DNA of 64,000 nt. It comes from a virus (lineage: Duplodnaviria > Heunggongvirae > Uroviricota > Caudoviricetes). A program made the translations under genes and the position numbers. The notes beneath the pieces were generated by a model. It searched no databases and was not told where the DNA came from. It saw only the letters and a program-made list of their open reading frames with translations. Shown here piece after piece: positions 4,799 to 61,938 of this stretch; the stretch's first letter is position 1, and every line of letters starts with the position of its first letter. The stretch lies in the IMG/VR virus record IMGVR_UViG_3300006226_000014, positions 24,804-88,803 of that record; one strand, written 5' to 3'.

Positions 4799-4833
4799 CA
4801 AATTCTCCTTTTAATTTCATTTATTATTTAGTT

Positions 4834-5374: not shown

Positions 5375-5410
5375 GCTCTGAACTGTTTGATTATATTTTA
5401 ACTAAATATT

Positions 5411-8470: not shown

Positions 8471-8477
8471 CCGATAT

Positions 8478-21261: not shown

Positions 21262-21276
21262 AGTAATTAGTAGAGT

Positions 21277-21663
21277 TTATCTAACTGTGGATTGTAAGAG
21301 GGCTTCGTAATCTATGGTTTCGTCAAAGCAAAGAACCTGATGGGTAACTATTCGATACCACCAATAATAGTGTTCTTCTATAGATATTGGCTTTCCATTA
21401 AGAGGAGACAGATAGTTGTCCATTCTTTGATGTATGAACCGTCGAAGAGTTACAACATTCTTAGGTTGATACAACAGTTCTGGGTGAGCAGACACAGCAA
21501 ATACGTGTGCTCTGTCTTTTATCTTAGGATTACCATCTATGAATTGATAGAACTCTTTAGCTGAAAGACATCTATCAAATTGACAAGCCCGTTTGTCGCG
21601 CTTATCTACGATTGCTTTACACTGGACCCACTTGGGATCATCTGACGATCTATTAGCCACCAT
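21277..21663 (-). CDS. Hypothetical protein (128 aa).
   Basis: Track ORF; ATG preceded by ACTAATTA. Confidence 0.5.
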   Translation of the reverse strand: MVANRSSDDPKWVQCKAIVDKRDKRACQFDRCLSAKEFYQFIDGNPKIKDRAHVFAVSAHPELLYQPKNVVTLRRFIHQRMDNYLSPLNGKPISIEEHYYWWYRIVTHQVLCFDETIDYEALLQSTVR

Positions 21664-21674
21664 TAATTAGTAGA

Positions 21675-22769: not shown

Positions 22770-22810
22770 CTTAATCTCTCCTGATAATTAGTTTTAGAGA
22801 ACTAACTAAT

Positions 22811-28775: not shown

Positions 28776-28930
28776 AATAATTAGTTACAGATTGGTGAAA
28801 GATAAGAAGTATACAAAACATAACAGTTTCTCGAACCGTTTACTCGTGAAATCTGAAAAGACTAAATTTATCTTTAAAAATGTAAGAAAACATTAGTAAA
28901 CAGTTTGTTTAACGTAAAGCTAAATACAGT

Positions 28931-33808: not shown

Positions 33809-33830
33809 TCTTTACAATTAACTAACTATT

Positions 33831-37887: not shown

Positions 37888-37909
37888 AGTAATTAGTTAA
37901 TATATAAAT

Positions 37910-39529: not shown

Positions 39530-39875
39530 TAGTAGTACAAGTAGTTTTATTATTATTGGACTACGAATAGATGATGAACTTAAGAAAAAGTTTGAAGCTT
39601 ATGCAATTAATAATGAATTAAGAGAGTGCTTTTATCAAAATGAATTTAATGTTGTAGATTTCGCAGAACAATTTGATTTAGATTGTGAATCAGATAATGA
39701 AGGCGATACTTACAATATTGGTGTAGACATAAATACAAGTGGAGAAGAATGGCTAGAGTATTCTGCTAATTCTTGGAAAGAACTTATTGAAAATGAAAAG
39801 ATTAAGAAGTTATTAGAACTCTCTGATAAAACAGCAGATGATCTACTAATTATTACTGGAACAGAAGCTTGTTAG
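39501..39875 (+). CDS. GFVSNSSSSSF-leader family member 6 (124 aa).
   Basis: MKKRTGFVSNSSTSSFIII. The ATG at 39501 is chosen over the track start at 39492 to match the other family members. Confidence 0.65.
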   Translation: MKKRTGFVSNSSTSSFIIIGLRIDDELKKKFEAYAINNELRECFYQNEFNVVDFAEQFDLDCESDNEGDTYNIGVDINTSGEEWLEYSANSWKELIENEKIKKLLELSDKTADDLLIITGTEAC

Positions 39876-40966: not shown

Positions 40967-40975
40967 TATATCATA

Positions 40976-41611: not shown

Positions 41612-41821
41612 TATAATAATAACTTACTACCCTGACGTATTATTTCCGGAGGGAGATAATCTGCAGCGAAAGGAGTTTTTTGAACAAAACGGATGAAGAA
41701 AACAGTCCGGGGATCAGGCGGGATGCGGAATACAGGCCCGCTTGCCCATTTTTAACTAAATAATATAAGCAGTATCGCGAAAGGTTATTGCTTCATATAC
41801 TTAAAACGCTAGGAGGGTTTT
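41612..41821 (+). promoter_or_regulatory. GC-rich structured leader upstream of hsp20; candidate RNA regulatory element.
   Basis: About 50% GC against a 35% background. GCGGG/CCCGC and CCGGA/TCCGG stems. SD CTAGGAGGG at the 3-prime end. Confidence 0.3.
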
Positions 41822-42691
41822 ATGAACACAAAAGAGAAATTCACAAATTTTGTCAATTCTGTCTCATCTATTTCACCAGATGATTCTATGCATCAAAGAG
41901 TGCTATCTAATGGAGATATTGAACTCGATATGCCAGATGGAATGGGCGGAAGAGCAAAGGCCGTTTTTAGTACATCACCTACTATAGGGAGAGAAGTTAC
42001 TTATTGGGGTGGATATAACGACGGCAATTTTAATGGAGAGAGCCAACATTATTGGAATGGAGATACTAGTATTCAGACATTTCCTAATACTGTGACTAGT
42101 CCAGATTATGCACCAGGTGGATATGGAAGTGGTGGTAATGGTAATTCTGAACATTGGGTGTTGCCCAACAAACAGTCAGGCTGGAGTAGAACTCATGACC
42201 ATACAATTGTGGGTAGTCCTGATTATGACCGTATTAACATTAAGAAAAAGATTGAAGAATTAGAAAAGTCTATCGAAAAAGTTGTACCTAACAAAATAGA
42301 TAAAGACTTAATAGACACAAAGATTCCTTACAATGTCAAAAAAGACTTAGATGCTAATTTGATCTATATGTTTGCTATTGCTGGTTACAAAGAGAACCAA
42401 ATAGAATTAGTAATGAAGAAAGATGGTCTTCTTCTCAAACTTAAATCAGCACCAGACGACAATGACTTAATAGGCGAAGGCTTTGAGTACTTATGTCATG
42501 GCATAAAAGATAGCGAACAAGAAGTTGGCATCTATTTAGACGTTGACGAATACGAAACAGCCAACTCAGAAGTAGAATTAGACAATGGCATCTTACAGAT
42601 CTTCATACCCAGACGTAAAGAACTGAAGAACAGAATCAAAGTCAAAGCTAAGCCGACTGTAAAAAAGAAGATTGACTTCGAGTTAATCTAA
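41822..42691 (+). CDS. Small heat-shock protein (Hsp20/alpha-crystallin domain) with an N-terminal extension.
   Basis: C-terminal alpha-crystallin domain: DANLIYMFAIAGYKENQIELVMKKDGLLLKL ... LDNGILQIFIPRRKE. Confidence 0.6.
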   Translation: MNTKEKFTNFVNSVSSISPDDSMHQRVLSNGDIELDMPDGMGGRAKAVFSTSPTIGREVTYWGGYNDGNFNGESQHYWNGDTSIQTFPNTVTSPDYAPGGYGSGGNGNSEHWVLPNKQSGWSRTHDHTIVGSPDYDRINIKKKIEELEKSIEKVVPNKIDKDLIDTKIPYNVKKDLDANLIYMFAIAGYKENQIELVMKKDGLLLKLKSAPDDNDLIGEGFEYLCHGIKDSEQEVGIYLDVDEYETANSEVELDNGILQIFIPRRKELKNRIKVKAKPTVKKKIDFELI

Positions 42692-42695
42692 TCAT

Positions 42696-44783
42696 ATGGG
42701 ATTTCAATTTGGAAGCGTCCGACAGCAAGAAAAACCTCGGCAAAACTTACAGAAATTTGACAGTTTACTAAAAGAGCATTGGCAACCAGGTAGCAAGTAC
42801 TATCTGTTTGTAGTTGATAATGTCATTAGTAAGACACATTTAGACATATTAGCAAAAGATATCGAAAAGCATTACATAACGTCATACAACATCGTATCGG
42901 CTATTTCAGTAAAAGATCCAACTAATGATTCTACTGATTCGCTACTATCGTATGAAAGTAACTGGCGGCAATATTTAACATTCAATGATACACCAGCACA
43001 CTGCATAATAGCATTTGGCTCCGTTATCCGTATTCTTAACAGATCCGGTGATGTTACTTACTATGACTTCTTCGATGATAAGTTCAATGATCCGCGATAC
43101 TATTGTGGCAGCGAATTTGTTGATGGTCCAAACAAGTGGATCTATCCAGTAGCACCGGTCAAAGAACTATATCCAGTTCATATCAATAATGATCCAACTA
43201 ATATGCTCACTAGATTCTTTAGAGAGAAACTAGAACGCATACAGCGTGATGATATGTCTACTGACTCATTAGATGTTAGACCATATCAAATCCACTATAT
43301 CGACACAAAAGAGGAAACATCAAAAAGCTTACAGTTACTAATGAATGCTGAACTTTTGGCACTTGATACAGAAACAGATGGCTTAGACTTTCTTGTCAAT
43401 AAGTTAGGCACTGTGCAACTATCAGTTGATGGTGAGAATAGTTATGTGTTTGATTGGGAGAATGTAGATAAGCGCATCTTTAAGAAAGTACTAACAACAG
43501 CAACTCGTATCACATTAGCAAATGCTAAGTTCGATGTTAAGTTCATTTGGAAGAATGGAGTAACTGGATGGTACCCAACAGATGATACGGTGCTCTTGTC
43601 TCATGCGATCAACTCTAATCGTTCTAAGGGTTTGAAGCCAGGTGCAATTTTCTATTGCGGTAAGTTCACAGGATATGATGATGAATTAGACAAAGCGAGA
43701 AAGCAACTCAAGGTTGACAACTTCTTACAAATACCAAAACAGATATTGATCAAATATGCTGGATTAGATGCAATAGTAACTTGGCGAGTTCAAAAAGCTC
43801 TCGATAAGCATGTGGCTTGGGTTGATAAGATGTACCCAAATGAAAAGCTTAAAGAATGGACAATAGAAAGATGGTACCGTGAAGTGATGATCCCAAATGC
43901 TAATACTGTAACGGATGTAGAATTTGAAGGCATTTACTTCGATAAGGATCAATTCGCCATTTCGGAAAAGATCATAGTAGAAAAGATTGCCTCATTGAAA
44001 GATGAACTTAGCAAACTTTGGAATGTGCCAACTACATTTAAGTTCGAGTCAACTAAAGAGCTCGGCTTATTGTTCAAGAGAATGGGTTGGCCGGAAATAG
44101 ACACTGCAAAAGATGGTGGTTACAAAACATCTGATACAGTACTTACTGAATATGAACTATTAGAAAAGGATGCCAAACTGAAAGCTAAGGGCATCAACAT
44201 ATGCGGCATTAAGACATTGAAAGATCTTCGTTCATACAATGTAGCGTTGAAGACATTCATCAATGGATGGAGAGAATGGCTCAGACGGCATCCGGATGGT
44301 TCATGGCGGATTCATCCATCATGCAATACGTTTGGTACTGAATCATATCGTCACGCAATGAGAGATCCAAACTTCCAACAAATACCGAGTGGAAGCACAA
44401 TAGCGCCCCACATTAAGAAACTGTTCACAGTACCAGATAAGAATGATTGGCTATTAGTGAACGCCGACTTTAGATCTTTGCAGTTGATATTAGCATTTTG
44501 TGATTGTGGTATCAATAAGAATGGTGTTGATCCGATTGCTTATAAGATCTATGGACAAGGTGGAACACAAGATGCTCACTCAATGACGACACATAGTGTC
44601 TTTTGTGAACCAGTTCATTTAGAAATCATAGAGATAGAAGATGATGATGGTAATAAGATCATTTTTGGTGAAGAACAGAAGATTAAGATTCTACGAAAAG
44701 GACTTATTGATGATAATGAAGAACTTGTCATTAAGGGTGCTGAGTTCCAAGCAGATGATGTCTTTGTGGAGTACGTATTATGA
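42696..44783 (+). CDS. Family A DNA polymerase, N-terminal part (3-prime to 5-prime exonuclease domain and polymerase through motif A).
   Basis: Exo I LALDTETDGLD. Motif A LLVNADFRSLQLIL. O-helix-preceding DAHSMTTHSVF. Then about 65 aa without homology before the stop. Confidence 0.8.
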   Translation: MGFQFGSVRQQEKPRQNLQKFDSLLKEHWQPGSKYYLFVVDNVISKTHLDILAKDIEKHYITSYNIVSAISVKDPTNDSTDSLLSYESNWRQYLTFNDTPAHCIIAFGSVIRILNRSGDVTYYDFFDDKFNDPRYYCGSEFVDGPNKWIYPVAPVKELYPVHINNDPTNMLTRFFREKLERIQRDDMSTDSLDVRPYQIHYIDTKEETSKSLQLLMNAELLALDTETDGLDFLVNKLGTVQLSVDGENSYVFDWENVDKRIFKKVLTTATRITLANAKFDVKFIWKNGVTGWYPTDDTVLLSHAINSNRSKGLKPGAIFYCGKFTGYDDELDKARKQLKVDNFLQIPKQILIKYAGLDAIVTWRVQKALDKHVAWVDKMYPNEKLKEWTIERWYREVMIPNANTVTDVEFEGIYFDKDQFAISEKIIVEKIASLKDELSKLWNVPTTFKFESTKELGLLFKRMGWPEIDTAKDGGYKTSDTVLTEYELLEKDAKLKAKGINICGIKTLKDLRSYNVALKTFINGWREWLRRHPDGSWRIHPSCNTFGTESYRHAMRDPNFQQIPSGSTIAPHIKKLFTVPDKNDWLLVNADFRSLQLILAFCDCGINKNGVDPIAYKIYGQGGTQDAHSMTTHSVFCEPVHLEIIEIEDDDGNKIIFGEEQKIKILRKGLIDDNEELVIKGAEFQADDVFVEYVL

Positions 44784-44941: not shown

Positions 44942-44943
44942 TT

Positions 44944-45825
44944 ATGTATAAGATAACCAAACGATCAATAACGATAGACGACTTTCTCAAGTTGAAGAAC
45001 TTCCCGCCATTCAAGAAGATGCGTTCAAATGGGAAGACGCTAAATCTAGCAACTATCTTTGCGTGCACTGGCCCAACTTTGGGCAGACAAATGAAAGGTG
45101 CTGGCTTCTCAGAACACGATTGTGATTTGACTATTGAGACATTCAACTTAGAGAATGCATACAACACAGCATTACGTACAACCAAAGATAAGACGCCATT
45201 AGAACTCAAGTACATCATAGTAGGCAATAAGCTTAGAGAACTGTTCTTCCAAACATATCCCGGTCTATTAGACAGAGTGAATAGAGAACAACAGTTCGCA
45301 ATGAAGCACGGCTATGTTAGAACCTGGACCGGGCCAGTGAGACACTTTCCAGAGTTCCGCTATATGAAACGAAACATCAATGGAAATCTAATAGGAGTTG
45401 ATCAAAAACTGTATAGTAAGATGTTTGCCGGTATGAAGAATGAAGCTAGCAATACTTCAATTCAGACTGCTGAAGTCTATCAAGCAATGCCAGACTGTAC
45501 TGCAACTAATGTGCTGTTGAAAGAATGGGGATTGAAAAGTCGACTTTACAATTATGTGCACGATTCATTATCATTGTATGTGTACAAACCAGAAGCTAGA
45601 TTGATATATGCATTATTGAATCGACTATCATTAGAGCATAGAGAGCCATACTATGATCTGCGTATGTACATTGATGTAATAGAGGCTGACTTAACTAATC
45701 CAGAACATTACTATGACAAAGGAAAAGAGATCAATATCGAAAACTATGATTTAGATGAAGAACTCACCTCATGGAATGCAGAACATGGAACTAATTTAGT
45801 ATATAAGGAGTTGATACCAAAATGA
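44944..45825 (+). CDS. Family A DNA polymerase, C-terminal part (motifs B and C).
   Basis: Motif B RSNGKTLNLATIFACTGP (RxxxKxxNFGxxYG-like); motif C YNYVHDSL. Confidence 0.8.
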   Translation: MYKITKRSITIDDFLKLKNFPPFKKMRSNGKTLNLATIFACTGPTLGRQMKGAGFSEHDCDLTIETFNLENAYNTALRTTKDKTPLELKYIIVGNKLRELFFQTYPGLLDRVNREQQFAMKHGYVRTWTGPVRHFPEFRYMKRNINGNLIGVDQKLYSKMFAGMKNEASNTSIQTAEVYQAMPDCTATNVLLKEWGLKSRLYNYVHDSLSLYVYKPEARLIYALLNRLSLEHREPYYDLRMYIDVIEADLTNPEHYYDKGKEINIENYDLDEELTSWNAEHGTNLVYKELIPK

Positions 45826-47176: not shown

Positions 47177-47220
47177 TACTTAAGGAAATATATCTGTTGG
47201 AATAAAAATAACTAATTATT

Positions 47221-48467: not shown

Positions 48468-48497
48468 ATTAATTAGTAAAGACGGCAACTAATTACT

Positions 48498-49286
48498 ATG
48501 AGAAAAATAGCACTAATATTGTTGGCTTTTTGCTTATTTGCATGCCAACGCGACGGTTTAACGATAAAGAACGGTGTTCTAACAGTAGGAGTAGAGGCTA
48601 ACTATCCGCCTATGGAGTATTTGACACCTTACGGAGAGTTCATTGGCTTTGATATTGATTTAGCTAGAGCACTCGGAAAGAAACTCGATTTAGAAGTTAG
48701 ATTTGTCAACACTAAATGGAACAGTATCTTTACTGAATTAAGTATGAGACGCTTCGATGTCATCATTTCAAGTGTTAGCATTTTGCCAGAGAGGGAATTA
48801 AGTTATGCTTTTTCTAAGCCATATTTAGAAAACTCGCTCAGCTTGATTGTCAATAAGAATGCCGACATAAAGCCAACCACATTAAAAGAGTTAGTTGGAT
48901 TACGTATTGCATATCAAGCTGAAACATCAACAGATCATCTATTACATCAGTGGGCTCGAGATAACGATGTTCAATTAGATTGTAACCCGCACTTTAGAGT
49001 TGACTCTTGCTTAGGTGCATTACAAAATGGACAAGTTGATGTTGTCATTATTGACGGAATAGTAGCATATGAATACTTACGCTATTTGAACTTTGATGAT
49101 AGATTTGAAATGTCAGGAGTTATCTTTAATGAAGACTTACTCGGTGTTTGTATGCTACAAGACAACCCCGAACTATTAGAACTTGTCAACTCCGCGCTCA
49201 AAGAACTCAAAACAGAAGGCATTTTAGAACAACTCTCTTATAAGTACTTTAATCAGAATTTGATTAGAGATTGCTTAACTCACTAA
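48498..49286 (+). CDS. Lipoprotein: amino-acid ABC-transporter substrate-binding protein (family 3 SBP).
   Basis: Signal and lipobox LLAFCLFAC. GVEANYPPMEY ... GFDIDLARALGKKL ... VIIS fits the polar amino-acid SBP family. Confidence 0.65.
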   Translation: MRKIALILLAFCLFACQRDGLTIKNGVLTVGVEANYPPMEYLTPYGEFIGFDIDLARALGKKLDLEVRFVNTKWNSIFTELSMRRFDVIISSVSILPERELSYAFSKPYLENSLSLIVNKNADIKPTTLKELVGLRIAYQAETSTDHLLHQWARDNDVQLDCNPHFRVDSCLGALQNGQVDVVIIDGIVAYEYLRYLNFDDRFEMSGVIFNEDLLGVCMLQDNPELLELVNSALKELKTEGILEQLSYKYFNQNLIRDCLTH

Positions 49287-49717
49287 TTATTATGAACCTT
49301 CAAGAACTTAAGATACGAGAGTTGGGACTTCTTAATACTCATAGGGATCGATATGTCGAATATGGAGTTGCTTACACTGACATACGAAAAATATGTGAAA
49401 ACTTTAGCGGCCCTAAATTGTCAGACGGCATTCTTATATCTGAAATAGCACAGCAATATGCTCTCAAAGAAAAGAAGCTATATGATCTAACAAAAGATAA
49501 GAAACATCTTATGCATATCAAAGCAGCCTCTGAATTGTTTAAGAAAGAATTTGTATCATTCAATGTGCTATTTGACTTTTTCTCAAAACAAAAGCGCAAC
49601 ATTAAGTTCGAAGAAGCTAAGCACTTATTGTCTCAAACGTCATTTTATGACAGAGTGAACCCACAAACATTGGTAGATGTGTTACAGTTCATAGAGATGA
49701 ATGCAAAGGAAGAATAG
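49271..49717 (+). CDS. Hypothetical protein (148 aa).
   Basis: Track ORF. Confidence 0.5.
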   Translation: MLNSLIIMNLQELKIRELGLLNTHRDRYVEYGVAYTDIRKICENFSGPKLSDGILISEIAQQYALKEKKLYDLTKDKKHLMHIKAASELFKKEFVSFNVLFDFFSKQKRNIKFEEAKHLLSQTSFYDRVNPQTLVDVLQFIEMNAKEE

Positions 49718-50160: not shown

Positions 50161-50242
50161 ATTTTGAACATCTAATCTTTCCATCTTATATTATATATGT
50201 AAGGGACAATGAAATCCCAATATATCTTAAGGAGATAAGAAG
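50161..50242 (+). promoter_or_regulatory. Conserved promoter-leader cassette, copy 3 (extended leader).
   Basis: TTGAAC at 50164-50169, N17, TATATTATATA, tGTAAGGGAC, a second SD AAGGAGAT, ATG at 50243. Confidence 0.55.
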
Positions 50243-50630: not shown

Positions 50631-50662
50631 AAGGTCCTCCCTTATGGGAGGACCACTAACTT
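50631..50662. terminator. GC-rich hairpin; terminator-like, orientation ambiguous.
   Basis: GGTCCTCCC-ttat-GGGAGGACC. The T-tract is better on the minus strand (TTTTGTTT). Confidence 0.45.
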
Positions 50663-50677
50663 TAAAGAGGTAAACTT

Positions 50678-51352
50678 ATGAAAAGAATGATGTTGTTAAT
50701 GTTGACAGTAATTGTACTGTCTGGGTGTCCGACTCCTACTGGTGGAAATGGAAACGGTGATGATGATCCTATTCACACCCACAGTTGGGGAGAATGGTTT
50801 GTAACTGGAAATAACACAGTCCCGGCTACGTGTGTTGATTATGAACAAATAGAATGGAGAAGGAATTGTAGTAATTCTCCAACTCATTTTGAAGTTGAAA
50901 TGAGAAATGGTGACAGTCCAAATGTAAATTATCATAATGGAACAACTTCAAATAGTAGTTCTGTTCGGTGTCGAGATTGTTCAACCTTTATAGATTGGTC
51001 AGATTCCTTAGATTGGTCTAGTCCCTTGTCATATTGGAAAAATGATGATGGTGATTATTTAGGGTTTGGTTATCAAACTTCTCCAGGAGAAGGAACTTCT
51101 GCGTTTATTACATCAACCACTGGTTTAACTCCTGGGTTAGAGTTTTACAGATTAATTAATCTTACTGAAAATACATTTACATTAAAATATTTAAATCCCA
51201 ATCAGGGATATCCAAATATGTGGGGTAATGAATCCTATACTATTGAATATGAATTCGGACCTGGAGACGATGAAATTACAATAATTGATTTTGGTAGTTT
51301 TCCTTTTCCAATTCCGACTGGAGTTTACGAAAAATGGGATAGAATTTATTAA
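50678..51352 (+). CDS. Lipoprotein (224 aa).
   Basis: Signal and lipobox MLLMLTVIVLSGC. Gly/Asn/Thr-rich body with several Cys. Confidence 0.55.
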   Translation: MKRMMLLMLTVIVLSGCPTPTGGNGNGDDDPIHTHSWGEWFVTGNNTVPATCVDYEQIEWRRNCSNSPTHFEVEMRNGDSPNVNYHNGTTSNSSSVRCRDCSTFIDWSDSLDWSSPLSYWKNDDGDYLGFGYQTSPGEGTSAFITSTTGLTPGLEFYRLINLTENTFTLKYLNPNQGYPNMWGNESYTIEYEFGPGDDEITIIDFGSFPFPIPTGVYEKWDRIY

Positions 51353-51364: not shown

Positions 51365-51396
51365 CAGCCCCGGCTTCTCGGCCGGGGCTTTTTATG
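51365..51396 (+). terminator. Rho-independent terminator, possibly bidirectional between convergent genes.
   Basis: AGCCCCGGC-ttctc-GCCGGGGCT followed by TTTTTATGTTT. Confidence 0.65.
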
Positions 51397-51422: not shown

Positions 51423-52733
51423 CTAATCAATTGATTCTTCTATGTCACTTATTCCAAAAGTATCTATCAAATACTTTTCTAACTCTCCACTGTTTTTAAA
51501 CATCATTCCTTGAAACTCAAACGGTCGTTTTATGTCTCCTTGTTCTAGATAATCGTACATCAGATTCAAGTTCATCTTTCCGTCTTTATTCGTAATTGAA
51601 GTTACATCTAACTCAAACATATCACCTTGTCTAATCATAAAGTCTTCTTTGTCTATATCTAAATCATCGAATTCGTGTCTGTCAAATGAGTGTGGTCTAG
51701 TGTTATTTATTGGGTGTTGTTTGAATGTGTCTATGTCTTCAGATTCAGAAATATCCCATAATGGTTCATTTGGATCAAACGGTCTAACTGGTCGGTATAT
51801 AGTTTCTCTTTTATTGTCGTATCTAATTATCTGTATGTTCTCTGGGTTGAATACAAATATATTACCGACACCATTTTCTTCTGAAACGTAACCGTCATAA
51901 TTTAGCTTACGAACAATATCAGTGATCATAGGATTTTCCATTTGACTCCATTTATGAGTTCTAAATACTTCTGTTAGTTCACTTTGCAAAGTTCTATACA
52001 CTGCGCCAGGTTGCTTCATAGCAAAATTGAAGAAAAACTCTCTAGGATTCTTTCTCACTTCAGTCAAAAAAGCTGTTCTGTCTTTTCGACTACCTGGATT
52101 AAATAGATTAAGTGGCTTAGTCAATAAACATCGATATAGGTAATATTCATCTTGCCGGAACTTATCCATGAGATAGTCTCTTAAGTAGTCATTGATCATT
52201 ACTAATTTAGGTGTTAGAAAAGTGCCGCCGTATGATACATCAGTGCCTCTAAAGCGATTACGTTTTTCGAACTTAGTGAACTTATTAGGAGATATATGAT
52301 AGTAAGACTTTCCAGTTCGATAGATTTGTTCAAATAACTGTGACTCCTTAATTGTGTTGGGCTTCAATGCGACATAAGTGTCTGCCACTACTTTTGGGTC
52401 TTTTACATTTTCTATAACTAATCCGTCATGGTCATTCTCATAAGCCATTAAGGATAACTTATCAGAATTGTATCTTTTTCCATCTATTTGTATGTCATGA
52501 TAATCAGCACCTTCCGCATCAATGATCATTGGGTCATCAAATTCTAATTCATTTTTAATGACTTTTCCATCACCATACCATTCAGCAACTTCTGGATCTG
52601 ATGTGTACCATTTTCCTACAGACTTTTTTGAAGTGATCTTATCAAATTCTCCAGGTTCCCAGAAGTTTTTGCCGTCATCACTTCCTCCTGACATTCCACG
52701 ATAACCAGTATAGATTTCTTCAAATAGTTTCAT
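51423..52733 (-). CDS. Hypothetical 436-aa protein with an MKLFEEIY leader.
   Basis: Track ORF; SD AGGAAAG. Confidence 0.55.
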   Translation of the reverse strand: MKLFEEIYTGYRGMSGGSDDGKNFWEPGEFDKITSKKSVGKWYTSDPEVAEWYGDGKVIKNELEFDDPMIIDAEGADYHDIQIDGKRYNSDKLSLMAYENDHDGLVIENVKDPKVVADTYVALKPNTIKESQLFEQIYRTGKSYYHISPNKFTKFEKRNRFRGTDVSYGGTFLTPKLVMINDYLRDYLMDKFRQDEYYLYRCLLTKPLNLFNPGSRKDRTAFLTEVRKNPREFFFNFAMKQPGAVYRTLQSELTEVFRTHKWSQMENPMITDIVRKLNYDGYVSEENGVGNIFVFNPENIQIIRYDNKRETIYRPVRPFDPNEPLWDISESEDIDTFKQHPINNTRPHSFDRHEFDDLDIDKEDFMIRQGDMFELDVTSITNKDGKMNLNLMYDYLEQGDIKRPFEFQGMMFKNSGELEKYLIDTFGISDIEESID

Positions 52734-52742: not shown

Positions 52743-54497
52743 CTAAGCGAAAAAGTAATGGATATCATCAGCTGTGTCATATATCACATAGACACTATCA
52801 TCATATCGCTTCAAATAGATAGGCTCCCAACCTGGAAAGCCTTTCATTAATTGAACTGGAACATCACATGCAGCCCACAACTGATCTCTGCTAATTTCTT
52901 CAAAGTTACTATCTTCTGGTCCTCCATCAAAATCATCTAACCTAGCATAATAGCCCATGTCCTGCGCGCACTCAGTTTCATCTTCCCAGGGCAAGTCATC
53001 ATTGATTCCTAATTCACGACAGTCACCAAGATATTGCTTTCGTTTCTTCGGAGGTTTGGGTACTTTCTTCTCATTTCGTAGCTTCTTAAGCTCATTAATA
53101 GCTTCTATGTTCTCTTTAGAATAAGGTTCTGTCTTGCTATAGACATTCATCCAATAGGCTTCGTCTTTTGCTTCTTGTAAGTTTGATACATAATAGATAT
53201 TAGCTCTGATATCTAAAAAGTCATTATGATAAGCATATGCTGCTCTATGATGTCCATCCATTATGCAGTAATAGCCATTCCACTCACACACGTCTATTGG
53301 GTCACAGTTGAAAGTGTCTCCGCCTTCTATATCATCAAATTGACTCCAGTCGTAAGGTTCATCACCATCGCCGTCCATGTCTTGTCGTAATCTGCCAATA
53401 GGTATAAGGCCTGACTTATGTGGCAACTTAGCTCTCACACAATCTGTCCATACTCGATATCTGTCTTCTGGGTCAATATCAGGAAAGTCTTCCCAATCCA
53501 TTTCTGGTGCAAAGTACTTAGTCTTAGGCCGATTAGATTCTTGGAGTGCTCTACGATAGATAGACTCCATTAAGCCAACTTCTTTCCTAGTATCTTCTAA
53601 TGGTTCATTATTGGCTATCTCTTCAGCCTCTTCGTTGTTCTTAACTGCAACATTTGGTTCTTCAATGGGCGGCTCAGCTTCTTGTGGACCTTCAGCTGCT
53701 TCTGTTTCAGCCTCTACTGGTTTAGCTTCAACGGTACTGGTGTCCATTACCGGTAAGTCGTTCTGCTCTGAAGTCGACTGCACCTCGTCTATGTCAGCAC
53801 TGACTGCATCAGCTGCTTTCTCACTCTTGATGCCACCTTGAGATTGCGTTCTTTCATCTGGTAAGCCAGCTGGTTGTTCTGGTGCTTCGAGAGTATCTTC
53901 TTGTGATGTAGATGCAGCAGAGGAAGTCGCAGTTTGAGCACCGCCTAATTGCTTCAATATGTTAGGTATCTCTTTGTCTAAATCTTCAATAGCAGCCCAG
54001 AGGTGCTTACATAATTGTTGTCCTCTAACATTGCCACTGCTATCATGTCGATTAGCCCAAATGTCTTTGCCTTGTTGGCCAGTGAATGGTGAGTACGTGT
54101 TGTCTTTCTTATCGTCTTCTTCGAACATACCCTGCCAATAGAACGCGCCACAGTCACATTGTACTTTAACGTCTGCTTTGTCAAATACTGTCTGTAGAAT
54201 CTGAGCTTGTTGACTATATGGAAGAGTCTCAAAGTTCTTGGGTATGATGTTTGCTATGTTGTAGAAGTGTAGTTGAACAGCGTAACCCTTACTTAGGCCA
54301 GCCATCTCTTGTCCATTGACGCTAAAGTGAACATTGTTGCTTTTGCTGCTTTCAACTTCAAATAAGATATGAAGACTGTTTGGGTAATTTAGTATGCTTC
54401 GGACCAAGTTTGTTGAGCCAGTACCATCTTTGCTAATGGCTTTGTTCGTAATGCCTGACGTTACAAATTGATCTAGACGATATTCTACAAGCTGCAT
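52743..54497 (-). CDS. ParB/Srx-fold (DGHHR) domain protein with an acidic low-complexity linker (584 aa).
   Basis: GYYCIMDGHHRAAYA is the ParB-like nuclease-domain signature. ATG preceded by ACTAACTAAT. Confidence 0.5.
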   Translation of the reverse strand: MQLVEYRLDQFVTSGITNKAISKDGTGSTNLVRSILNYPNSLHILFEVESSKSNNVHFSVNGQEMAGLSKGYAVQLHFYNIANIIPKNFETLPYSQQAQILQTVFDKADVKVQCDCGAFYWQGMFEEDDKKDNTYSPFTGQQGKDIWANRHDSSGNVRGQQLCKHLWAAIEDLDKEIPNILKQLGGAQTATSSAASTSQEDTLEAPEQPAGLPDERTQSQGGIKSEKAADAVSADIDEVQSTSEQNDLPVMDTSTVEAKPVEAETEAAEGPQEAEPPIEEPNVAVKNNEEAEEIANNEPLEDTRKEVGLMESIYRRALQESNRPKTKYFAPEMDWEDFPDIDPEDRYRVWTDCVRAKLPHKSGLIPIGRLRQDMDGDGDEPYDWSQFDDIEGGDTFNCDPIDVCEWNGYYCIMDGHHRAAYAYHNDFLDIRANIYYVSNLQEAKDEAYWMNVYSKTEPYSKENIEAINELKKLRNEKKVPKPPKKRKQYLGDCRELGINDDLPWEDETECAQDMGYYARLDDFDGGPEDSNFEEISRDQLWAACDVPVQLMKGFPGWEPIYLKRYDDSVYVIYDTADDIHYFFA

Positions 54498-54502
54498 ATT
54501 AG

Positions 54503-54925
54503 TTAGTTATGCAGTGGGTCTCTTTTCTTATCGGTGTAAAAGTCAACGACAGCCATTTGATCAGATGAGTCCGTTGGCGCAACCCATAGAGTGATTTGAT
54601 ACGGTTTGAGTTCAGCCTTCTTAACTGCGTAAGCTGTCAATGCAGCATTCTTACCCTTCTTAGATTTCCAATAGAGGCCGTCGTCATCAAAAGTGAGCTT
54701 ACAGTCATCCCATCTAAAGCGGTCATCATATTCTGGATCTTCTTCATCCTTGTCTTTATCATCACCTTCGTGGCTATAGTCGAAGCACGAAAATGATCCG
54801 CGTTTTGGCTCATCACTGTAGATTTGTACGTGATCTAATTCATGCATTTCTTCAATGAGCATCGTATAGAAGCTATTCTCCAATACTTTCTCTCTAAGTT
54901 GGTAGATCTCCTCAAAGCTTTTCAC
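54503..54925 (-). CDS. Hypothetical 140-aa protein with an MKSFEEIY leader.
   Basis: Track ORF. Confidence 0.5.
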   Translation of the reverse strand: MKSFEEIYQLREKVLENSFYTMLIEEMHELDHVQIYSDEPKRGSFSCFDYSHEGDDKDKDEEDPEYDDRFRWDDCKLTFDDDGLYWKSKKGKNAALTAYAVKKAELKPYQITLWVAPTDSSDQMAVVDFYTDKKRDPLHN

Positions 54926-57179
54926 CGCTAATCATCTCCTCTATGTCCTCACGTAATGGCTCACTTAGCATTTGATCTAAGTTGTGATATTGTTCTTTTG
55001 TCTCATTTAGCATATCTGATACACTCATTTCTTTGAGCTTAGTCTTACCAACTCCGCCGAATTCGAGGTTCTTATCTGTTAGTACTTGGAATGTCTCAAA
55101 TAGCGGATTAGCTGTGTTGATCTTAGGAACGAGCATCTCGTGTGAATGTCCAGGTCGACTCCATTCAGTTAAGTTCTGCTCAGCTAACCAGTTGAAGTAG
55201 ATCTCATTGCGGGCTTCTTTGTAGCGCTCGCTTATCTCTTTGAGTCGTTTCATCTTAGCTTCATATAGCGTTTGTTGCTTCTCTTTAGCCAACTTTTCAC
55301 GCAGCATCTTTCGAGTTCGTAGATAGTACTCACGTTCAGCTGCATTCATAGATTCTGGCATTGGTTCAACATCACCGCCACCGTCACCTAGGTCTTCTCC
55401 ACCGCCATCTCCACCTTCGCCTCCAGCACCACCAGACATATCGATGTCCATGTCTCCACCGTCACCACCTTCACCCTCTTCTTCGTCTCCTTCAGAATTG
55501 GCTTTAGCAGCGGCCTTGGCGATCGCAGACAATCTGATCCATCGTTGTAAGTCAGTTGGATCTAAAAATGTGTACTTAGAGAGAATGTCAGCAACAACAT
55601 CTTCAGGAAGTGGTTCACCCTCTTCCATTCCGAGTACGCCTTGAAGCATCTCAATGATGCCATTAGCTAATTCAACTGATGCTGATCTAGCTTCTCTCTT
55701 CTCATCACCCATGTCCTCAGCAGGGAAGCGCATTGACAATACGAACGGTATGTTGTAGTCAAACTCACCGGTAATAGCAAAGTGCAATCTAATAAGTTGG
55801 CCGAGACATTCGAGAAAGGTGGACTGTATTGTGTACACATGTCGAGCAAATGGTTTGTACTGTTCAGTTAGCGCGATGCCGCTATTTCCAAATCCGCCAA
55901 ATTCTTGGTCAAGATAAGACTTCGGAACACCACAAGCAATAGCGACTCTATCCTGATACATCTCTAAGTCGCCAGTAAAGTCCATATCAACTTTTGATTC
56001 GTGTATCTTCATATCTAAGAGCCCTTCAGGCACCCAAACTTTTGTATTGACGGTATACACCTCAAGACTGTTGCTTAATGGACTAACTCCTATGTTCTCA
56101 TAGTCTTCACGTACGCTGTTGACTGTTTCAAATGCTGTTGCTACACCAACGCCTTCCGTTCCTTTGACACTGTAGACCTGCACTGGGAAAGAAGAAGCTC
56201 TAGCTAATCCCTGAAGTGCCATTGTGCTGTAGCATTGTTTGAATGGCGCTAATGCCATAAGTAGTGGTGGATAACCGTATGGAAAGAACTCACTGTTGTC
56301 AGCTTGATAGCGGAAGTGGCTAATTAGCCAAGGTGGAACTATGATGCCATCTGCAAACTCGAATCCGAGTAGTTTGGTGTCAAACATATCGGCAAAGTTG
56401 TCATCGAGATCAGACAATGTGTCTTTTCCGCTGCGTGTAGTCAACAAGTCAACTAATCGGCTTATCTTGCTATTGCGGTTCTTCATCATCTCTTGCTCGC
56501 CTGTCATTTGAGCAACTACTTCAGCCATGTGTACTGCACTGAACTCAAGTCGTTCTTTAAGCATTGGTACTTTGAGAGGGATGATACGCTCTACACCTTT
56601 GTCAGACACTCGATGAGCCCAAAGTGCTTCACCGTATTGTTCTATGTCGTAACAAGCAGCACTGATACGTTGCTGTGTCAATCCCCATTGACTAAATAGT
56701 TCATAACACTTGTTGACGAATGGGATAGATGGGCTCTCTACTGAAAGCAATCTGTTTTGATCATCTAATTGTGTTGCTTCATCTGCGACTAGGCGACATA
56801 CCCTAGATAAGAATGGGTCATTTAGAACAGCAAATCTGAGTTCATTCAGTCGTTGTTGTCGTTCGGCTATATCGCTATAGACAAGAGTTGTCTCATTGAT
56901 ATATGCATTGAAGTACTTATTGAGAGTTGTAGCTAATGGTGCTGATTTGAAGATGCTGCCTAATGCGGCATGCTTAACTCTGTACGAATCATTTGCGACA
57001 TCTACTTTGACTAATCGAATGCCGTTTGCTTTCTCAAATTCGGACTGTGCATCTTTACGTTGCACTCCCTGCCAGCCCCAAAGGCTACTTAATCTCTTTG
57101 AGAAGCTGGACTTAAAGATTTCAGACTTTGGTTTTTGTCCACTAGTATATATTGATTCTTGTAATTGACTATCTGCCAT
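54912..57179 (-). CDS. Large hypothetical protein (755 aa); possibly portal or morphogenesis-related.
   Basis: Long ORF. C-terminal Gly/Asp/Glu low-complexity tract (EGDEEEGEGGDGGDMDID ...). ATG preceded by ACTAACTAAT. Confidence 0.5.
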   Translation of the reverse strand: MADSQLQESIYTSGQKPKSEIFKSSFSKRLSSLWGWQGVQRKDAQSEFEKANGIRLVKVDVANDSYRVKHAALGSIFKSAPLATTLNKYFNAYINETTLVYSDIAERQQRLNELRFAVLNDPFLSRVCRLVADEATQLDDQNRLLSVESPSIPFVNKCYELFSQWGLTQQRISAACYDIEQYGEALWAHRVSDKGVERIIPLKVPMLKERLEFSAVHMAEVVAQMTGEQEMMKNRNSKISRLVDLLTTRSGKDTLSDLDDNFADMFDTKLLGFEFADGIIVPPWLISHFRYQADNSEFFPYGYPPLLMALAPFKQCYSTMALQGLARASSFPVQVYSVKGTEGVGVATAFETVNSVREDYENIGVSPLSNSLEVYTVNTKVWVPEGLLDMKIHESKVDMDFTGDLEMYQDRVAIACGVPKSYLDQEFGGFGNSGIALTEQYKPFARHVYTIQSTFLECLGQLIRLHFAITGEFDYNIPFVLSMRFPAEDMGDEKREARSASVELANGIIEMLQGVLGMEEGEPLPEDVVADILSKYTFLDPTDLQRWIRLSAIAKAAAKANSEGDEEEGEGGDGGDMDIDMSGGAGGEGGDGGGEDLGDGGGDVEPMPESMNAAEREYYLRTRKMLREKLAKEKQQTLYEAKMKRLKEISERYKEARNEIYFNWLAEQNLTEWSRPGHSHEMLVPKINTANPLFETFQVLTDKNLEFGGVGKTKLKEMSVSDMLNETKEQYHNLDQMLSEPLREDIEEMISGEKL

Positions 57180-57184
57180 ATTAG

Positions 57185-57940
57185 TTAGTGAGAAGAGTTA
57201 GAATTGGCATGCAGAGCTTTAGCATCTGAGTTAACCCGGTCAACAGCGGACAATAGTTTAGATGACACTTCAATAGTTTCTAAATAAGTTAAGAATGATG
57301 GCACATCTTTGTTGAAGCAGTGACTGTCATAATAGGGCTTATCTGGATAGACAAAAGTATGTGACGGACCAACTCTCTCGTCTGCAACAAAGAGTTCCCT
57401 AAGCTCGGGATAAGCTACACCTATTTTGTCTGCTATCTTATTGAACTCAGCACAGAATGTCACCTTCATTGCTAAATAACAGTTCAGCATGTATTTAGAA
57501 AGTTCAGCTGTTTCTAATGTTGTAAAGATGCATCTAAATGAACCTGTCTTAACTCGTGAGTAAAGTTCAGCTACTTTTGCAGTATCTCCCCTATTGCCTC
57601 CCAGAATAACGAAATTAGGAGTTGGCGCATGTTGTGTACTTCCATAGTGTTCGGGAGAGAACACAACATTTGGTCCAAGTTTCGCGCATGTTCCAGGTGG
57701 CACTGTTGATTTGACTACATAGATACTAGCACTTATGTTTTGTATCGACTGTTCTACTATTGAAGTATCGCAGCCATTCTTGTGGTCAGTTGGCACACAA
57801 ATGAAGGCAAAATCGTAGTGTCCTTCATATGTGCTGTCTTTTATGAGTGGATCATATATTGTGGGCTTTAAGTTATGGAATTCTTGTTCTATGTGCTTAC
57901 CGACTACTCCATAACCAACTATAAGTATTCGGTAGTTCAT
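57185..57940 (-). CDS. UDP-glucose/GDP-mannose 6-dehydrogenase family protein, truncated (lacks the C-terminal UDP-binding domain).
   Basis: ILIVGYGVVGK Rossmann fold. FAFICVPTD, VVKSTVPPGT, VVFSPEH, FTTLETAELSKYMLNCYLAMKVTFCAEFN and YYDSHCFNKD align with E. coli Ugd [53 protein letters not shown] and GGYCLPKD. Confidence 0.7.
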   Translation of the reverse strand: MNYRILIVGYGVVGKHIEQEFHNLKPTIYDPLIKDSTYEGHYDFAFICVPTDHKNGCDTSIVEQSIQNISASIYVVKSTVPPGTCAKLGPNVVFSPEHYGSTQHAPTPNFVILGGNRGDTAKVAELYSRVKTGSFRCIFTTLETAELSKYMLNCYLAMKVTFCAEFNKIADKIGVAYPELRELFVADERVGPSHTFVYPDKPYYDSHCFNKDVPSFLTYLETIEVSSKLLSAVDRVNSDAKALHANSNSSH

Positions 57941-59329: not shown

Positions 59330-59357
59330 AATAGTTAGTACAAACAAACTAACTAAT

Positions 59358-60746
59358 ATGAATGAACTCACTATACAAATATTAGCACAATTTAAAGAAC
59401 GCCTACAAGCGCATAGACTACGGGAGGGCTTTAAGTCAGCTGATGATTTCAGTGTAGCTCAAGTTGTCTCTCCATCATCGATTACTAAATGGGAAGGCAA
59501 ATCTCATAAGCAGCTATTCAAAGCAGCTAAAGCTAACGATAAGACAGCTCTAGAGTATCTTTTCTATAAGATGGGTGGAGCAATTCAGGCCGCATTTTGG
59601 AAGAACTATTTAGGTCCTAGCGGATCAATTCGTAGATACCGTATACAAGCAGACAGTGCATGGGAACAATGGCTTTCTATCGCATGGATGGCTATGACAG
59701 AAGGTTTCTCTGAGATATACAACACATCATACAAAGGTGGTACAGATGCTTACACTGCCACAGAAGACGACAAGTCAGAACATAAAAGTTCGGGCGCCCT
59801 TGAGAAATTTGATATAGACAAAACGCCAGAGAAGCATTTGCTCAATGTCTTTGCTTCTCGATATAAGAACATTCTTCGTAATGCAGCTATCAATGCCAAC
59901 ACTGCAGCTCGAGTTGGTGGTATGACAGGTAGAGAGATCACCGGCGGCAGTGCTGAGGTGCAAGTTCATCAATATGAACCAACTTGGGCTGAGGATGGAA
60001 AAGACGACACTGACTGGGGTGGAACTGGTGATTATGAATCTACGTCATCTCGAGGCTATAAAGATGAGACCTTCGATATAGCATATGAAGAGGGTGGATT
60101 CAGGGCAGCCGAAAAAGGTGCTGCTGCTGATGCCTTTTTGACTAAATGGAAGCAGTTCTCACAAGATCCAGGTCTACAACAGAATACTAAAGGTGTAACA
60201 GCTGGAATGATCTTTGGAGAAGTCATTGGCAATAAAGATGCCGAGCTTCGCAAGATAGGGGTTAAGTTTGGCATATCGAGAAATAGTGCGCAGACACTAT
60301 TGACTAAAGCTCAAGAAGTAATGACACAACACGCTATCCCGCCAGCTGACTTGTTCGCAGCTATTAAGTACTACGGCAATGAGAAAGTTGCATCGTATCT
60401 ATCAGCAGTCAAAGCAACTGGAGAAAGTCCTAAAAAGACAGAAGCACCTAAAGAACAACAAACAGCTGGCTTTATGGAAGCATTTAGCGCTATTGGAGAA
60501 GATCCAGGATTGAAGAAGCCATCTAAAGCAGGTGTTAGTCGAGGAAGATGCTTATCTGATATGGTGAGAATGAACTTCCCAACAGCTGAAAAGTTAAGTG
60601 ACAAATATGGCATATCAGAGAAAGATGCACAGTGGTGGATCGGGGCAACTAAGAAATTCTTAAAAGGATACGGCATAACAGAGGCTGATCTTAAGAGTGC
60701 GATTAAAGAATACGGTAAGAAAGAGATTTTGACACTAATTAAATAA
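59358..60746 (+). CDS. Helix-turn-helix protein; possibly sigma-factor-like (tentative).
   Basis: KIGVKFGISRNSAQTLLTKAQEVM resembles sigma region 4.2. 462 aa. Confidence 0.5.
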   Translation: MNELTIQILAQFKERLQAHRLREGFKSADDFSVAQVVSPSSITKWEGKSHKQLFKAAKANDKTALEYLFYKMGGAIQAAFWKNYLGPSGSIRRYRIQADSAWEQWLSIAWMAMTEGFSEIYNTSYKGGTDAYTATEDDKSEHKSSGALEKFDIDKTPEKHLLNVFASRYKNILRNAAINANTAARVGGMTGREITGGSAEVQVHQYEPTWAEDGKDDTDWGGTGDYESTSSRGYKDETFDIAYEEGGFRAAEKGAAADAFLTKWKQFSQDPGLQQNTKGVTAGMIFGEVIGNKDAELRKIGVKFGISRNSAQTLLTKAQEVMTQHAIPPADLFAAIKYYGNEKVASYLSAVKATGESPKKTEAPKEQQTAGFMEAFSAIGEDPGLKKPSKAGVSRGRCLSDMVRMNFPTAEKLSDKYGISEKDAQWWIGATKKFLKGYGITEADLKSAIKEYGKKEILTLIK

Positions 60747-60748: not shown

Positions 60749-61558
60749 ATGCTGAAAGTATTTGTACCATCTCATAAGAGGCCAGATGCACCATTATTTA
60801 AGATAGCAAAAGGTTTGAATATTGTATTACAACATGAAGAAGATGTTGAACCGTATCAAAAAGCTAATGTGAATAATCATAACATCATATATATTCCAGA
60901 ATTAAGAGGATTGTTAGACGCGAGAAATTGGATATTAGATCAACCCTATGAATGGATCCTTATGATGGATGACGATGCTTCTGAAATTAAAAAATATGGA
61001 AATAAAAATAATTATTCAAAAAAAAAATTTAATTATATAATTACATGGGATGAGTTTATTATAGACTTAAAAAAATTAGTTCTTATATTAGAAAAAAATA
61101 AAATAGGATTAGCTGGTTTTAAGTCATATACAACTTTTAATGAAAATAATCTTTATTTTATAGATGATCAAAATTTATATAATATTACTACTATAAAGTT
61201 TTTTAGAGCTTATTTAATGAATAAATATTTATTAAAATCAAAAAATTTTAAATTCGAAGGATATCCAGATGATGGTGAAAATGGACAAAAAGCATTATGT
61301 GAAGATTCAGATTTATTATATTGGTGTTCTGCAAATAGTGTTAAAAAAGCAATTATAAATTCACATTGTCCATATTATTATGAAGAACAAGAATCTACAG
61401 TTTGGGAAACACATAATTATAAAAAGGAAATGCTTAGATTAGCATATATTTGGTTATTAAATAAATATAAAGATTATCCAAATATAAGAAAAGATATAGT
61501 TCAAGTTTTATTTTATTTTCATAAAGACTATTATAATGAAAGAAAGCGATTCCGCTAA
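60749..61558 (+). CDS. Putative GT-A-fold glycosyltransferase (DxD).
   Basis: KVFVPSHKRPD ... ILMMDDDASEI. Very AT-rich and Lys/Asn-rich. Confidence 0.35.
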   Translation: MLKVFVPSHKRPDAPLFKIAKGLNIVLQHEEDVEPYQKANVNNHNIIYIPELRGLLDARNWILDQPYEWILMMDDDASEIKKYGNKNNYSKKKFNYIITWDEFIIDLKKLVLILEKNKIGLAGFKSYTTFNENNLYFIDDQNLYNITTIKFFRAYLMNKYLLKSKNFKFEGYPDDGENGQKALCEDSDLLYWCSANSVKKAIINSHCPYYYEEQESTVWETHNYKKEMLRLAYIWLLNKYKDYPNIRKDIVQVLFYFHKDYYNERKRFR

Positions 61559-61882: not shown

Positions 61883-61938
61883 GATTTTGAACATCTAATC
61901 TCCCTTTCTTATATAATATATGTAAGGGAGATTAAATA
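61883..61938 (+). promoter_or_regulatory. Conserved promoter-leader cassette, copy 4.
   Basis: GATTTTGAACATCTAATCT (identical to copy 3 upstream), TATATAATATA, tGTAAGGGAGATT, ATG at 61939. Confidence 0.6.

Follow-up and report, generated by a model that had tools for sequence, protein, structure and literature searches.

A candidate late-class promoter abutting start codons in an uncultured clade of giant phages

The late promoter of bacteriophage T4 is the short sequence TATAAATA at -13 to -6, read by the phage sigma factor gp55 together with gp33 and the gp45 clamp, and the late promoter of the divergent T4-like phage Aeh1 is CTAAATA at -12 to -6 (PMC1524935). In the Thermus phages YS40 and Lalka27a, most transcripts are leaderless, beginning with the A or G of the start codon (bioRxiv 10.64898/2026.04.20.719267), while the non-virion RNA polymerase (nvRNAP) of phage AR9 uses a late promoter of the form A(-11)ACA-N6-T-A/G(+1) (PMC5312081, PMC7598289). 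Here, we analyzed a 64,000-nucleotide stretch of Caudoviricetes DNA (IMG/VR record IMGVR_UViG_3300006226_000014, positions 24,804 to 88,803; referred to as the window), in which a box of 10-11 bases with the consensus aACTAA(A/C/T)TA(A/T)T touches the ATG of 16 genes. The window belongs to a 90,449-bp metagenomic contig (ENA ERZ27257348 k141_859843). It is phage DNA of ~35% GC, and its source is an uncultured clade of 200-375 kb phages bearing a T4-type portal. We read the box as a compact late-class promoter that would give leaderless mRNAs, an interpretation to which we assign a probability of roughly 0.65.

The box is far more frequent in the window than chance predicts. The pattern ACTAAYTAWT was observed 13 times (1.95 expected), and the 13-mer ACTAAHTAHTATG, which corresponds to ACTAAHTAHT followed by ATG, is present in 15 copies against 0.07 expected, a count that none of 100 shuffles reached. 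The original prediction, made from the sequence of the window, had called for a motif search combined with position relative to the ATG; this search found 17 cores (ACTAA[ACT]T) no more than 14 nt before an ATG that opens an open reading frame (ORF), compared with 0.47 expected, and at 15 sites the core-to-ATG distance was exactly 10 nt. About 13 box-led starts had been listed. All of them are real, with the last base of the box directly next to the ORF-opening ATG except at 21663 (-), where the two overlap by 2 nt; three more had been overlooked, at 5411 (+), 47221 (+), and 49292 (+), for a total of 16. These genes had also been said to lack a Shine-Dalgarno (SD) sequence, and a hand-checked gene table of 16 box-led and 76 other genes bears this out: an SD of at least 4 nt precedes 0 of the 16 box genes and 45 of the 76 others (Fisher p = 6.8e-6). 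The box was described as sitting directly on the ATG, which is correct for the 16 genes, but it also occurs away from the ATG, upstream of SD-led genes. The sites in the window are listed below; relatives (L004, L005, and L006) and a second motif (motif 2) named in the list are described further on.

5401..5410 (+): box ACTAAATATT, abuts ATG 5411; 204 aa, NUMOD3 homing-endonuclease-like; the L004 homolog is also box-led
16190..16199 (+): box ACTAACTAAT, abuts ATG 16200; 68 aa; the upstream ORF stop is a TAA in the box
21262..21271 (-): box ACTAATTACT, abuts ATG 21261; 1148 aa, no family
21662..21671 (-): box ACTAATTAAT, 2-nt overlap with ATG 21663; 128 aa; motif 2 just upstream, assignment ambiguous
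22783..22792 (-): box variant ACTAATTATC, followed directly by AGGAGAGATTAAG and ATG 22769; 364 aa; 13-nt SD leader
22801..22810 (+): box ACTAACTAAT, abuts ATG 22811; 162 aa, LPD3 domain; back-to-back with the 22792 (-) box
28776..28785 (-): box ACTAATTATT, abuts ATG 28775; 1002 aa, DUF6267
33821..33830 (+): box ACTAACTATT, abuts ATG 33831; 545 aa, ORFan (a homolog search returned only the protein itself)
37888..37897 (-): box ACTAATTACT, abuts ATG 37887; 106 aa; divergent from the motif-2 gene at 37910
47211..47220 (+): box ACTAATTATT, abuts ATG 47221; 227 aa, I-HmuI NUMOD-like homing endonuclease
48468..48477 (-): box ACTAATTAAT, abuts ATG 48467; 188 aa; orthologs in L004, L005, and L006 box-led
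48488..48497 (+): box ACTAATTACT, abuts ATG 48498; 262 aa, SBP_bac_3
49282..49291 (+): box ACTAATTATT, abuts ATG 49292; 141 aa; upstream ORF stops in the box; box-led in three relatives
54498..54507 (-): box ACTAACTAAT, abuts ATG 54497; 584 aa; upstream ORF stop inside the box
57180..57189 (-): box ACTAACTAAT, abuts ATG 57179; 755 aa, T4 gp20-type portal
59330..59339 (-): box ACTAACTATT, abuts ATG 59329; 178 aa; the L006 ortholog has the box, AAGGAATAATA, and ATG
59348..59357 (+): box ACTAACTAAT, abuts ATG 59358; 462 aa; the site where the box was first remarked
50655..50664 (+): box variant ACTAACTTTA, followed directly by AAGAGGTAAACTT and ATG 50678; 224 aa; SD leader
4823..4832 (-): box ACTAAATAAT, 24 nt before ATG 4798 of a tail-fiber-like gene (>1600 aa); AAAGGAG in the leader
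41755..41764 (+): box ACTAAATAAT, in a 210-nt intergenic region, 57 nt before the SD-led ATG 41822
60734..60743 (+): box-like ACTAATTAAA, then 5 nt, then ATG 60749 (TET-associated glycosyltransferase)
39845..39854 (+): perfect box ACTAATTATT, an orphan within the 3' end of ORF 39492-39875, with no ATG or SD after it

Alignment of 33 non-redundant sites from six genomes at which the box is followed directly by ATG confined conservation to positions -11 (A in 24 of 33) through -1, with nothing conserved upstream of -11 and no -35 element. Within the core CTAA[A/C/T]TA, the bases C, T, A, A, T, and A are invariant, an invariance by construction because the search pattern itself fixes 8 of the 10 positions from -10 to -1. 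The two that it leaves free are -5, which is A, C, or T but never G, and -2, which is A or T. Downstream, A is enriched at +4 and +5. The start codon is ATG at all 33 abutting clade sites (L003 has one possible TTG), a result that says little given that ATG also makes up 90% of other starts.

Nearly all sites had been placed at the first gene of a transcription unit or at a strand switch. About half do lie at strand switches, but eight of the 16 are at same-strand gene junctions, and at four of these (16200, 49292, 54497, and 57179) the first TAA in the box, 5 nt before the ATG, serves as the stop codon of the upstream ORF. The box never contains TAA in all three frames, as had been stated; stops fall in the two non-ATG frames only, and for several variants in one frame only. 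Divergent pairs, described as near-palindromes, do hold two opposite boxes, which wholly fill an ATG-to-ATG gap of 21-30 nt among relatives. The two boxes are independent, however, and a single box has no structure. We rejected a hairpin on these grounds, as divergent pairs fold only through the two inverted boxes.

The 755-aa protein encoded at 54912-57179 (-) is a T4 gp20-type portal, because 14 of 25 aligned homologs match Portal_T4 (PF07230; best E 1.9e-9). Its first methionine, Met1, is invariant in the 25 homologs, and there are more than 449 homologs, on contigs of up to 375 kb. No DNA-level relative of the window was found among GenBank phages by megablast, and tblastn of GenBank phages with the portal and the 584-aa protein, the two best-conserved structural proteins, also found none; in the GenBank phage search, PolA and the DUF6267 protein had distant matches only. 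We compared the window with relatives whose portals are 48-90% identical. In all, eleven loci (the window, L003-L006, and L127-L132) were examined, the relatives through a combined ~170 kb of portal neighborhoods, a small part of each genome. Searches for further loci related through the 289-aa protein or the tail-fiber protein found none. The relatives are as follows.

L003/L004: 329 kb
L005: 261 kb
L006: 199 kb
L127: 299 kb, GenBank LSPZ01000001, from a termite-gut virome and undescribed in PMC5759034
L128: 335 kb
L129: 237 kb
L130: 109 kb
L131: 375 kb
L132: 125 kb, 49% GC

Six genes of the window (those encoding the portal and the 584-, 178-, 462-, 188-, and 141-aa proteins) keep the box in their L004, L005, and L006 orthologs while the flanks diverge, at protein identities of 38-82%. 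In IMG/VR, matches to the exact 14-mer AACTAACTAATATG are, among those listed, mostly single chance copies in unrelated viral contigs, whereas members of the clade carry 4-15 box copies per locus. Within a lineage, the ORF-opening ATG lies at a constant distance from the first base of the ACTAA core, and this distance changes from one lineage to another.

Window: 10 nt (15 sites)
L004: 10 nt (8 sites)
L005: 10 nt (6 sites)
L006: 10 nt (4 sites)
L127: 11 nt (2 sites)
L128: 11 nt (5 sites)
L131: 12 nt (7 sites)
L129 and L130: variable

Wherever the box is off the ATG, in the window and in the relatives, an SD lies between the two. In the window, the SD AGGAG directly follows ACTAATTATC at 22792 (-), and AAGAGG directly follows ACTAACTTTA at 50655 (+). 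Counted from box position 1, the SD begins at position 11, 11, 11, 12, 12, 13, 14, 14, 15, 16, 18, 23, and 57 in the 13 cases, and never before 11. Displaced boxes in the relatives include the following.

L130 portal: ACTAATTAATC-AAGGAATAAACTAA-ATG
L130 6702: ACTAATTAATTAT-AGGAGACACAT-ATG
L129 7626: ACTAATTTCCATA-AAGGAGGCTA-ATG
L129 14578 and 16366: box, SD, ATG
L131 15099: box, SD, ATG
L006 9426: ACTAACTATT-AAGGAATAATA-ATG; the orthologs in the window, L004, and L005 carry the box on the ATG

Because the spacing is lineage-specific and a displaced box is followed by an SD that never starts before position 11, we infer that the box marks the 5' end of a transcript, which would then open with AUG or with an SD, and that it need not touch the start codon. 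Two boxes fill the 21-30 nt between the ATGs of divergent pairs, so these leave no room for other promoters.

We next compared the box with T4-family late promoters. Like those of T4 and Aeh1, it is a single short AT-rich element without a -35, and its core CTAAnTA equals the CTAAATA of Aeh1 when n is A. Some of the genes behind it, including that of the T4-type portal, would be morphogenesis genes, the class served by T4 late promoters, and the phage, like T4, also has putative sigma70-type early promoters. As a control, a 50 kb structural region of Aeh1 was searched; CTAAATA lies 25-40 nt before late-gene ATGs at five sites, laid out as the 7-mer, 5 nt, and AAAGGAG, and one back-to-back divergent pair is included. 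Back-to-back copies likewise occur in the divergent pairs of the box, and the boxes of L129 and L130 reproduce the layout as the 7-mer, ~5 nt, and A-AGGAG. There are also differences. An extra conserved A (box position 1) precedes the C of the 7-mer, and TAwT (positions 7-10) extends 2 nt past its 3' end, unlike in T4 and Aeh1. The leader in the window lineage would be zero, whereas the Aeh1 sites are 25-40 nt before the ATG with an SD, and the phage replicates with PolA rather than with a T4-type PolB and clamp. Finally, the predicted start in the window lineage is 2 nt after the 7-mer and not 5 nt as in T4 and Aeh1. The number of bases from the 7-mer to the predicted start is given for each lineage below.

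T4, Aeh1, L129, and L130: 5
L131: 4
L127 and L128: 3
Window lineage: 2

L129 and L130 alone have the T4 geometry, and L131 comes close to it; the ATG or SD of the window lineage comes 3 nt after the last A of the 7-mer. There, a start with the T4 geometry would fall after the ATG, which is impossible for a gene such as that of the portal, whose Met1 is invariant across the 25 homologs. Either the placement of the start site has shifted in the window lineage, or a different enzyme reads the box.

Other known systems share some of these features. As in YS40 and Lalka27a, many genes have an element at a fixed short distance from the start codon, no SD, and a predicted 5' end at the A of AUG. The elements of YS40/Lalka27a and of Deinococcus-Thermus are, however, of the sigma70 -10 type (TANNNT or TAGGGT), ~6-7 nt from the ATG, and leaderless mRNA is common in the hosts. 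The box is not TANNNT and sits directly on the ATG; motif 2 does fit the TANNNT signature. Unlike in Thermus hosts, the other genes of this phage use strong SDs, and because they do, the host is presumably an SD user. A sigma70 promoter with the -10 adjacent to the ORF was rejected for the box, in which -12 to -7 reads nnACTA if the A of ATG is +1. With the same numbering, the box reads a(-11)A(-10)C(-9)...T(-1)A(+1), which equals the AR9 late promoter in spacing and matches it at 5 of 6 specified positions; both are 11-bp promoters, or in our case a candidate promoter, without a -35 in a giant phage. Position -8 of the box, however, is T at all sites and not A, and the sister lineages space it 1-2 nt differently. 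Leaders in AR9 measure 26-491 nt, and its promoter requires uracil DNA and a split beta/beta' polymerase. We rejected an AR9-type nvRNAP promoter on the basis of the T at -8, the presence of ThyX and sigma70 early promoters, and the lack of RNA polymerase domains in the sequence searched. Poxvirus late promoters, in which a TAAATG initiator overlaps the ATG and the templated leader is essentially absent, offer a parallel as late-class promoters with the initiator over the ATG. They belong to eukaryotic viruses with their own multisubunit polymerase and acquire 5' poly(A) heads by slippage, and no evolutionary relation exists.

A late-class promoter of the T4 kind is the best reading because of the core match, the Aeh1-like layout, the T4-type portal, and the genes served. 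The box would act as the single-element promoter of one temporal class, most likely that of late or morphogenesis genes. Transcription would start at the base right after the 10-nt box; in the window lineage, the base at box position 11 is nearly always A, with T before it. This A would usually be the A of ATG, giving a 5'-AUG leaderless mRNA translated without an SD by the leaderless pathway. At a minority of sites, it would instead open an SD (AGGAG or AAGAGG) or a longer leader. The reader of the box could be the host RNA polymerase with a phage late specificity factor or a phage-encoded polymerase. Host polymerase with a phage late factor is the likeliest candidate because the core CTAAnTA resembles gp55-dependent late promoters, and we propose it tentatively, at somewhat less than even odds. 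That nearly the whole late program consists of true leaderless mRNAs in an SD-using host, with a new late specificity factor or polymerase implied, is possible but doubtful. If so, the phage would rely on 70S-type leaderless initiation for its late proteins, perhaps aided by phage-altered ribosomes or initiation factors. The start would lie 3 nt closer to the -10-like element than in any described sigma-type system, and the new factor may sense the modified DNA that the phage appears to make.

Several points weigh against the promoter interpretation. The T4 geometry would put the start after the ATG in the window lineage, and a 2-nt gap is unusually short for a sigma-type open complex. The position of the start site is itself deduced from sequence alone. 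Half of the boxes are at same-strand junctions, where read-through transcripts would also carry the box, and the box-SD-ATG layout equals that of an A/U-rich translational enhancer upstream of an SD. Late timing draws on few annotated genes, as most box-led genes lack a functional assignment and one of them is an ORFan. In the 64-kb window, Pfam and PHROGs searches of 92 ORFs detected no sigma factor, gp55/gp33-like protein, or RNA polymerase, and the predicted structure of the portal (pLDDT 52) was too poor for use. Further searches gave similar results: no sigma factor, RNA polymerase, or homolog of gp55, gp33, or gp45 was found in the eleven clade loci (PHROGs and Pfam), a phmmer search with T4 gp55 had no match among the ORFs of the examined clade loci, and a DxDxD regular expression and PDB sequence searches with six proteins or profiles revealed no polymerase or sigma factor.

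Among the roles offered by the original prediction, the promoter or -10-type element giving leaderless or near-leaderless mRNAs is the one favored by ortholog conservation, lineage-specific spacing, interposed SD leaders, and cramped divergent pairs. It had also been suggested that the box is an SD-independent initiation signal. In that case, the box would act in RNA, within the 5' untranslated region of transcripts started upstream, and recruit ribosomes by rRNA pairing, S1, or a phage factor. The exact abutment on the ATG and the missing SD at 16 genes are what such a signal would produce, as are the A enrichment at +4 and +5 and the eight same-strand junctions, where polycistronic RNA would carry the box; the 10-12 nt spacing, specific to each lineage, might just as well reflect a constraint on ribosome spacing, and a box followed by an SD resembles an A/U-rich enhancer. 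However, the box is kept at a variable distance from the start codon, and an SD is then needed: orthologs retain it 11-30 nt from the ATG together with an SD, where it is conserved without being an SD substitute, and two SD-led genes have a box in the intergenic DNA ahead of them, at 24 and 57 nt. The divergent pairs would need promoters hidden in the opposite coding sequence, with nothing conserved upstream of -11. Box positions 6 and 9 vary freely, which is odd for rRNA pairing, and the box is specific to a gene class. The fit is poor, and we consider a translation signal unlikely. 

The suggestion of a processing site or a RegA-type operator fits poorly as well. Cleavage by a sequence-specific endoribonuclease of the phage or host, trimming transcripts to 5'-AUG or 5'-SD ends, would account for the same positional facts (a 5' end right after the box, on the ATG or SD) and for boxes at same-strand junctions, and the generation of leaderless mRNA by MazF-type enzymes is a known principle. 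Divergent pairs would still need promoters, and none is visible; no RNase-like gene was recognized in the window (Pfam and PHROGs); and sequence and geometry match T4-family late promoters in the comparison of L129, L130, and Aeh1. Trimming is therefore quite improbable. Even less can be said for an operator overlapping the start codon, bound by a RegA-type translational repressor or a DNA-binding regulator, despite the AU-rich conserved sequence over the AUG of many genes and the inverted pairs that look like dimer-binding sites. RegA-type sites overlap the AUG of mRNAs that otherwise bear an SD, which the box genes lack, and a repressor site leaves the translation of SD-less genes unexplained; most boxes are single, the spacing of paired ones varies from 21 to 30 nt, and other lineages keep the box away from the ATG. 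We regard it as very unlikely. The least credible alternative is that the box merely couples stop to start or blocks read-through, or reflects AT-rich intergenic composition. Upstream ORFs do end at the first TAA of the box at the four junctions described above, and the same 14-mer occurs singly in many unrelated viral contigs among the matches listed. Half of the boxes, however, have no upstream same-strand ORF, stops occur in one or two frames only, and composition predicts neither 15 copies where 0.07 are expected nor the 4-15 copies per locus in clade members, compared with single chance copies in the unrelated contigs listed. The divergent sites and enrichment statistics have already largely refuted both versions.

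The window holds two further candidate promoter classes, which bear on the design of the box. Motif 2 (GTTAATHT) contains a sigma70 -10-like hexamer, TAATnT, with G at -14. It precedes ATG by exactly 6 nt at 5 sites (0.25 expected), which serve ThyX, both PolA parts, and two small ORFs, and precedes AGGAG by exactly 6 nt at 3 sites, which serve the ligase, 32581, and 38187. With TAATnT at -12 to -7, motif 2 fits the -10-adjacent-to-ORF signature at five genes and is also conserved in relatives; by its sequence, this layout is the classical leaderless-gene signature. Three near-identical sigma70-type promoters have GTAAGGGAG within 7 nt and are conserved in L004 and L127-L130. These TTGAAC-N17-TATATA sites are presumably early promoters read by the host polymerase. 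The phage would thus have three promoter classes: host-early-like, DNA metabolism (motif 2), and the box. Because motif 2 and the sigma70-type promoters share the design of the box, predicted starts in this phage appear to fall habitually on the ATG or SD. A scan with the sigma70 consensus gave 73 matches compared with 67 in shuffles and cannot locate alternative promoters.

42682..42698 (+): motif 2, GTTAATCT-N6-ATG, PolA N-terminal part
37896-37912, 40962-40978, 44930-44946, and 63217-63233 (+): motif 2-N6-ATG
29311, 32555, and 38160 (+): motif 2, GTTAATHT-N6-AGGAG
61887..61927 (+): sigma70-type promoter, TTGAAC-N17-TATATA then GTAAGGGAG
28934-28974 and 50164-50204 (+): sigma70-type promoter, TTGAAC-N17-TATATA then GTAAGGGAG

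Box-led genes that fit a late class are those of the portal, the tail-fiber-like protein, and homing endonucleases, and PolA, the ligase, and ThyX have motif 2 instead of the box. A NUMOD3 homing-endonuclease gene on the opposite strand, homologous to window 5411-6025, interrupts the ortholog of the 584-aa gene at about residue 158 in L004 (12275-15898, the counterpart of window 52743-54497). Separate boxes stand at the start of the endonuclease gene and at that of the downstream half of the split gene.

Apparently, a T4-family-like late promoter has been compressed onto start codons in this clade, and the late regulon of these uncharacterized giant phages would be leaderless. A late promoter fused to the ATG would provide a sequence rule for the late genes and true starts of a large unannotated clade. 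Gene callers trained on SDs mis-start box-led genes; the public call for the 584-aa gene (52743-54497, -) is 520 aa (P0122), starting 64 codons downstream of the box-abutting ATG. If the reading is true, the lineages would form an evolutionary series from a T4-like late promoter with an SD leader to a leader of zero, and the origin of leaderless genes could be compared between sister genomes. It would also raise the question of how an SD-using host translates a whole class of leaderless mRNAs late in infection, and the box with its start would be a candidate module of only 11 bp, promoter and start combined, for synthetic use.

The remaining gene content of the window, identified with Pfam and PHROGs, includes a split family-A DNA polymerase, an ATP-dependent ligase, ThyX, an RNA ligase, and several homing endonucleases; DNA-modification genes (TET-associated glycosyltransferase, UDP-glucose dehydrogenase, and methyltransferases); and genes for the DUF6267 protein and the tail-fiber-like ORF of >1600 aa. 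Hypermodified DNA is suggested by the gene set at 60749-61558, 57185-57940, 9103-10335, and 40976-41611, which comprises the TET-associated glycosyltransferase, the UDP-glucose dehydrogenase, a radical-SAM-like protein, methyltransferases, and ThyX. The polymerase is encoded in two ORFs, 42696-44783 (+) for the exonuclease and N-terminal part and 44944-45825 (+) for the C-terminal part, set apart by a 53-codon ORF. Each half has its own motif-2 start, and the split is also present in L005. The box-led gene at 48498-49286 (+), divergent from the conserved 188-aa gene, encodes a homolog of bacterial periplasmic solute-binding proteins (SBP_bac_3, E 3.6e-39).

A scan of genome contigs with a portal homolog gave no match and hence no clue to the host. 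The sole Rfam match to an RNA family in the window is a tRNA-Gln (UUG) at 8477-8551 (+), inside a plus-strand gene array; two ORF calls that span the tRNA (8262-8522 and 8431-8700) are probably spurious. A strong GC-rich hairpin at 51366-51389, with a 10 bp stem and T-runs, separates the convergent genes 50678-51352 (+) and 51423-52733 (-) and is likely a bidirectional terminator. In L127, a eukaryotic-type topoisomerase I at 3205-5003 is split in two ORFs (Topoisom_I_N/Topoisom_I and Topoisom_I/Topo_C_assoc), both of which sit behind early-type promoters.

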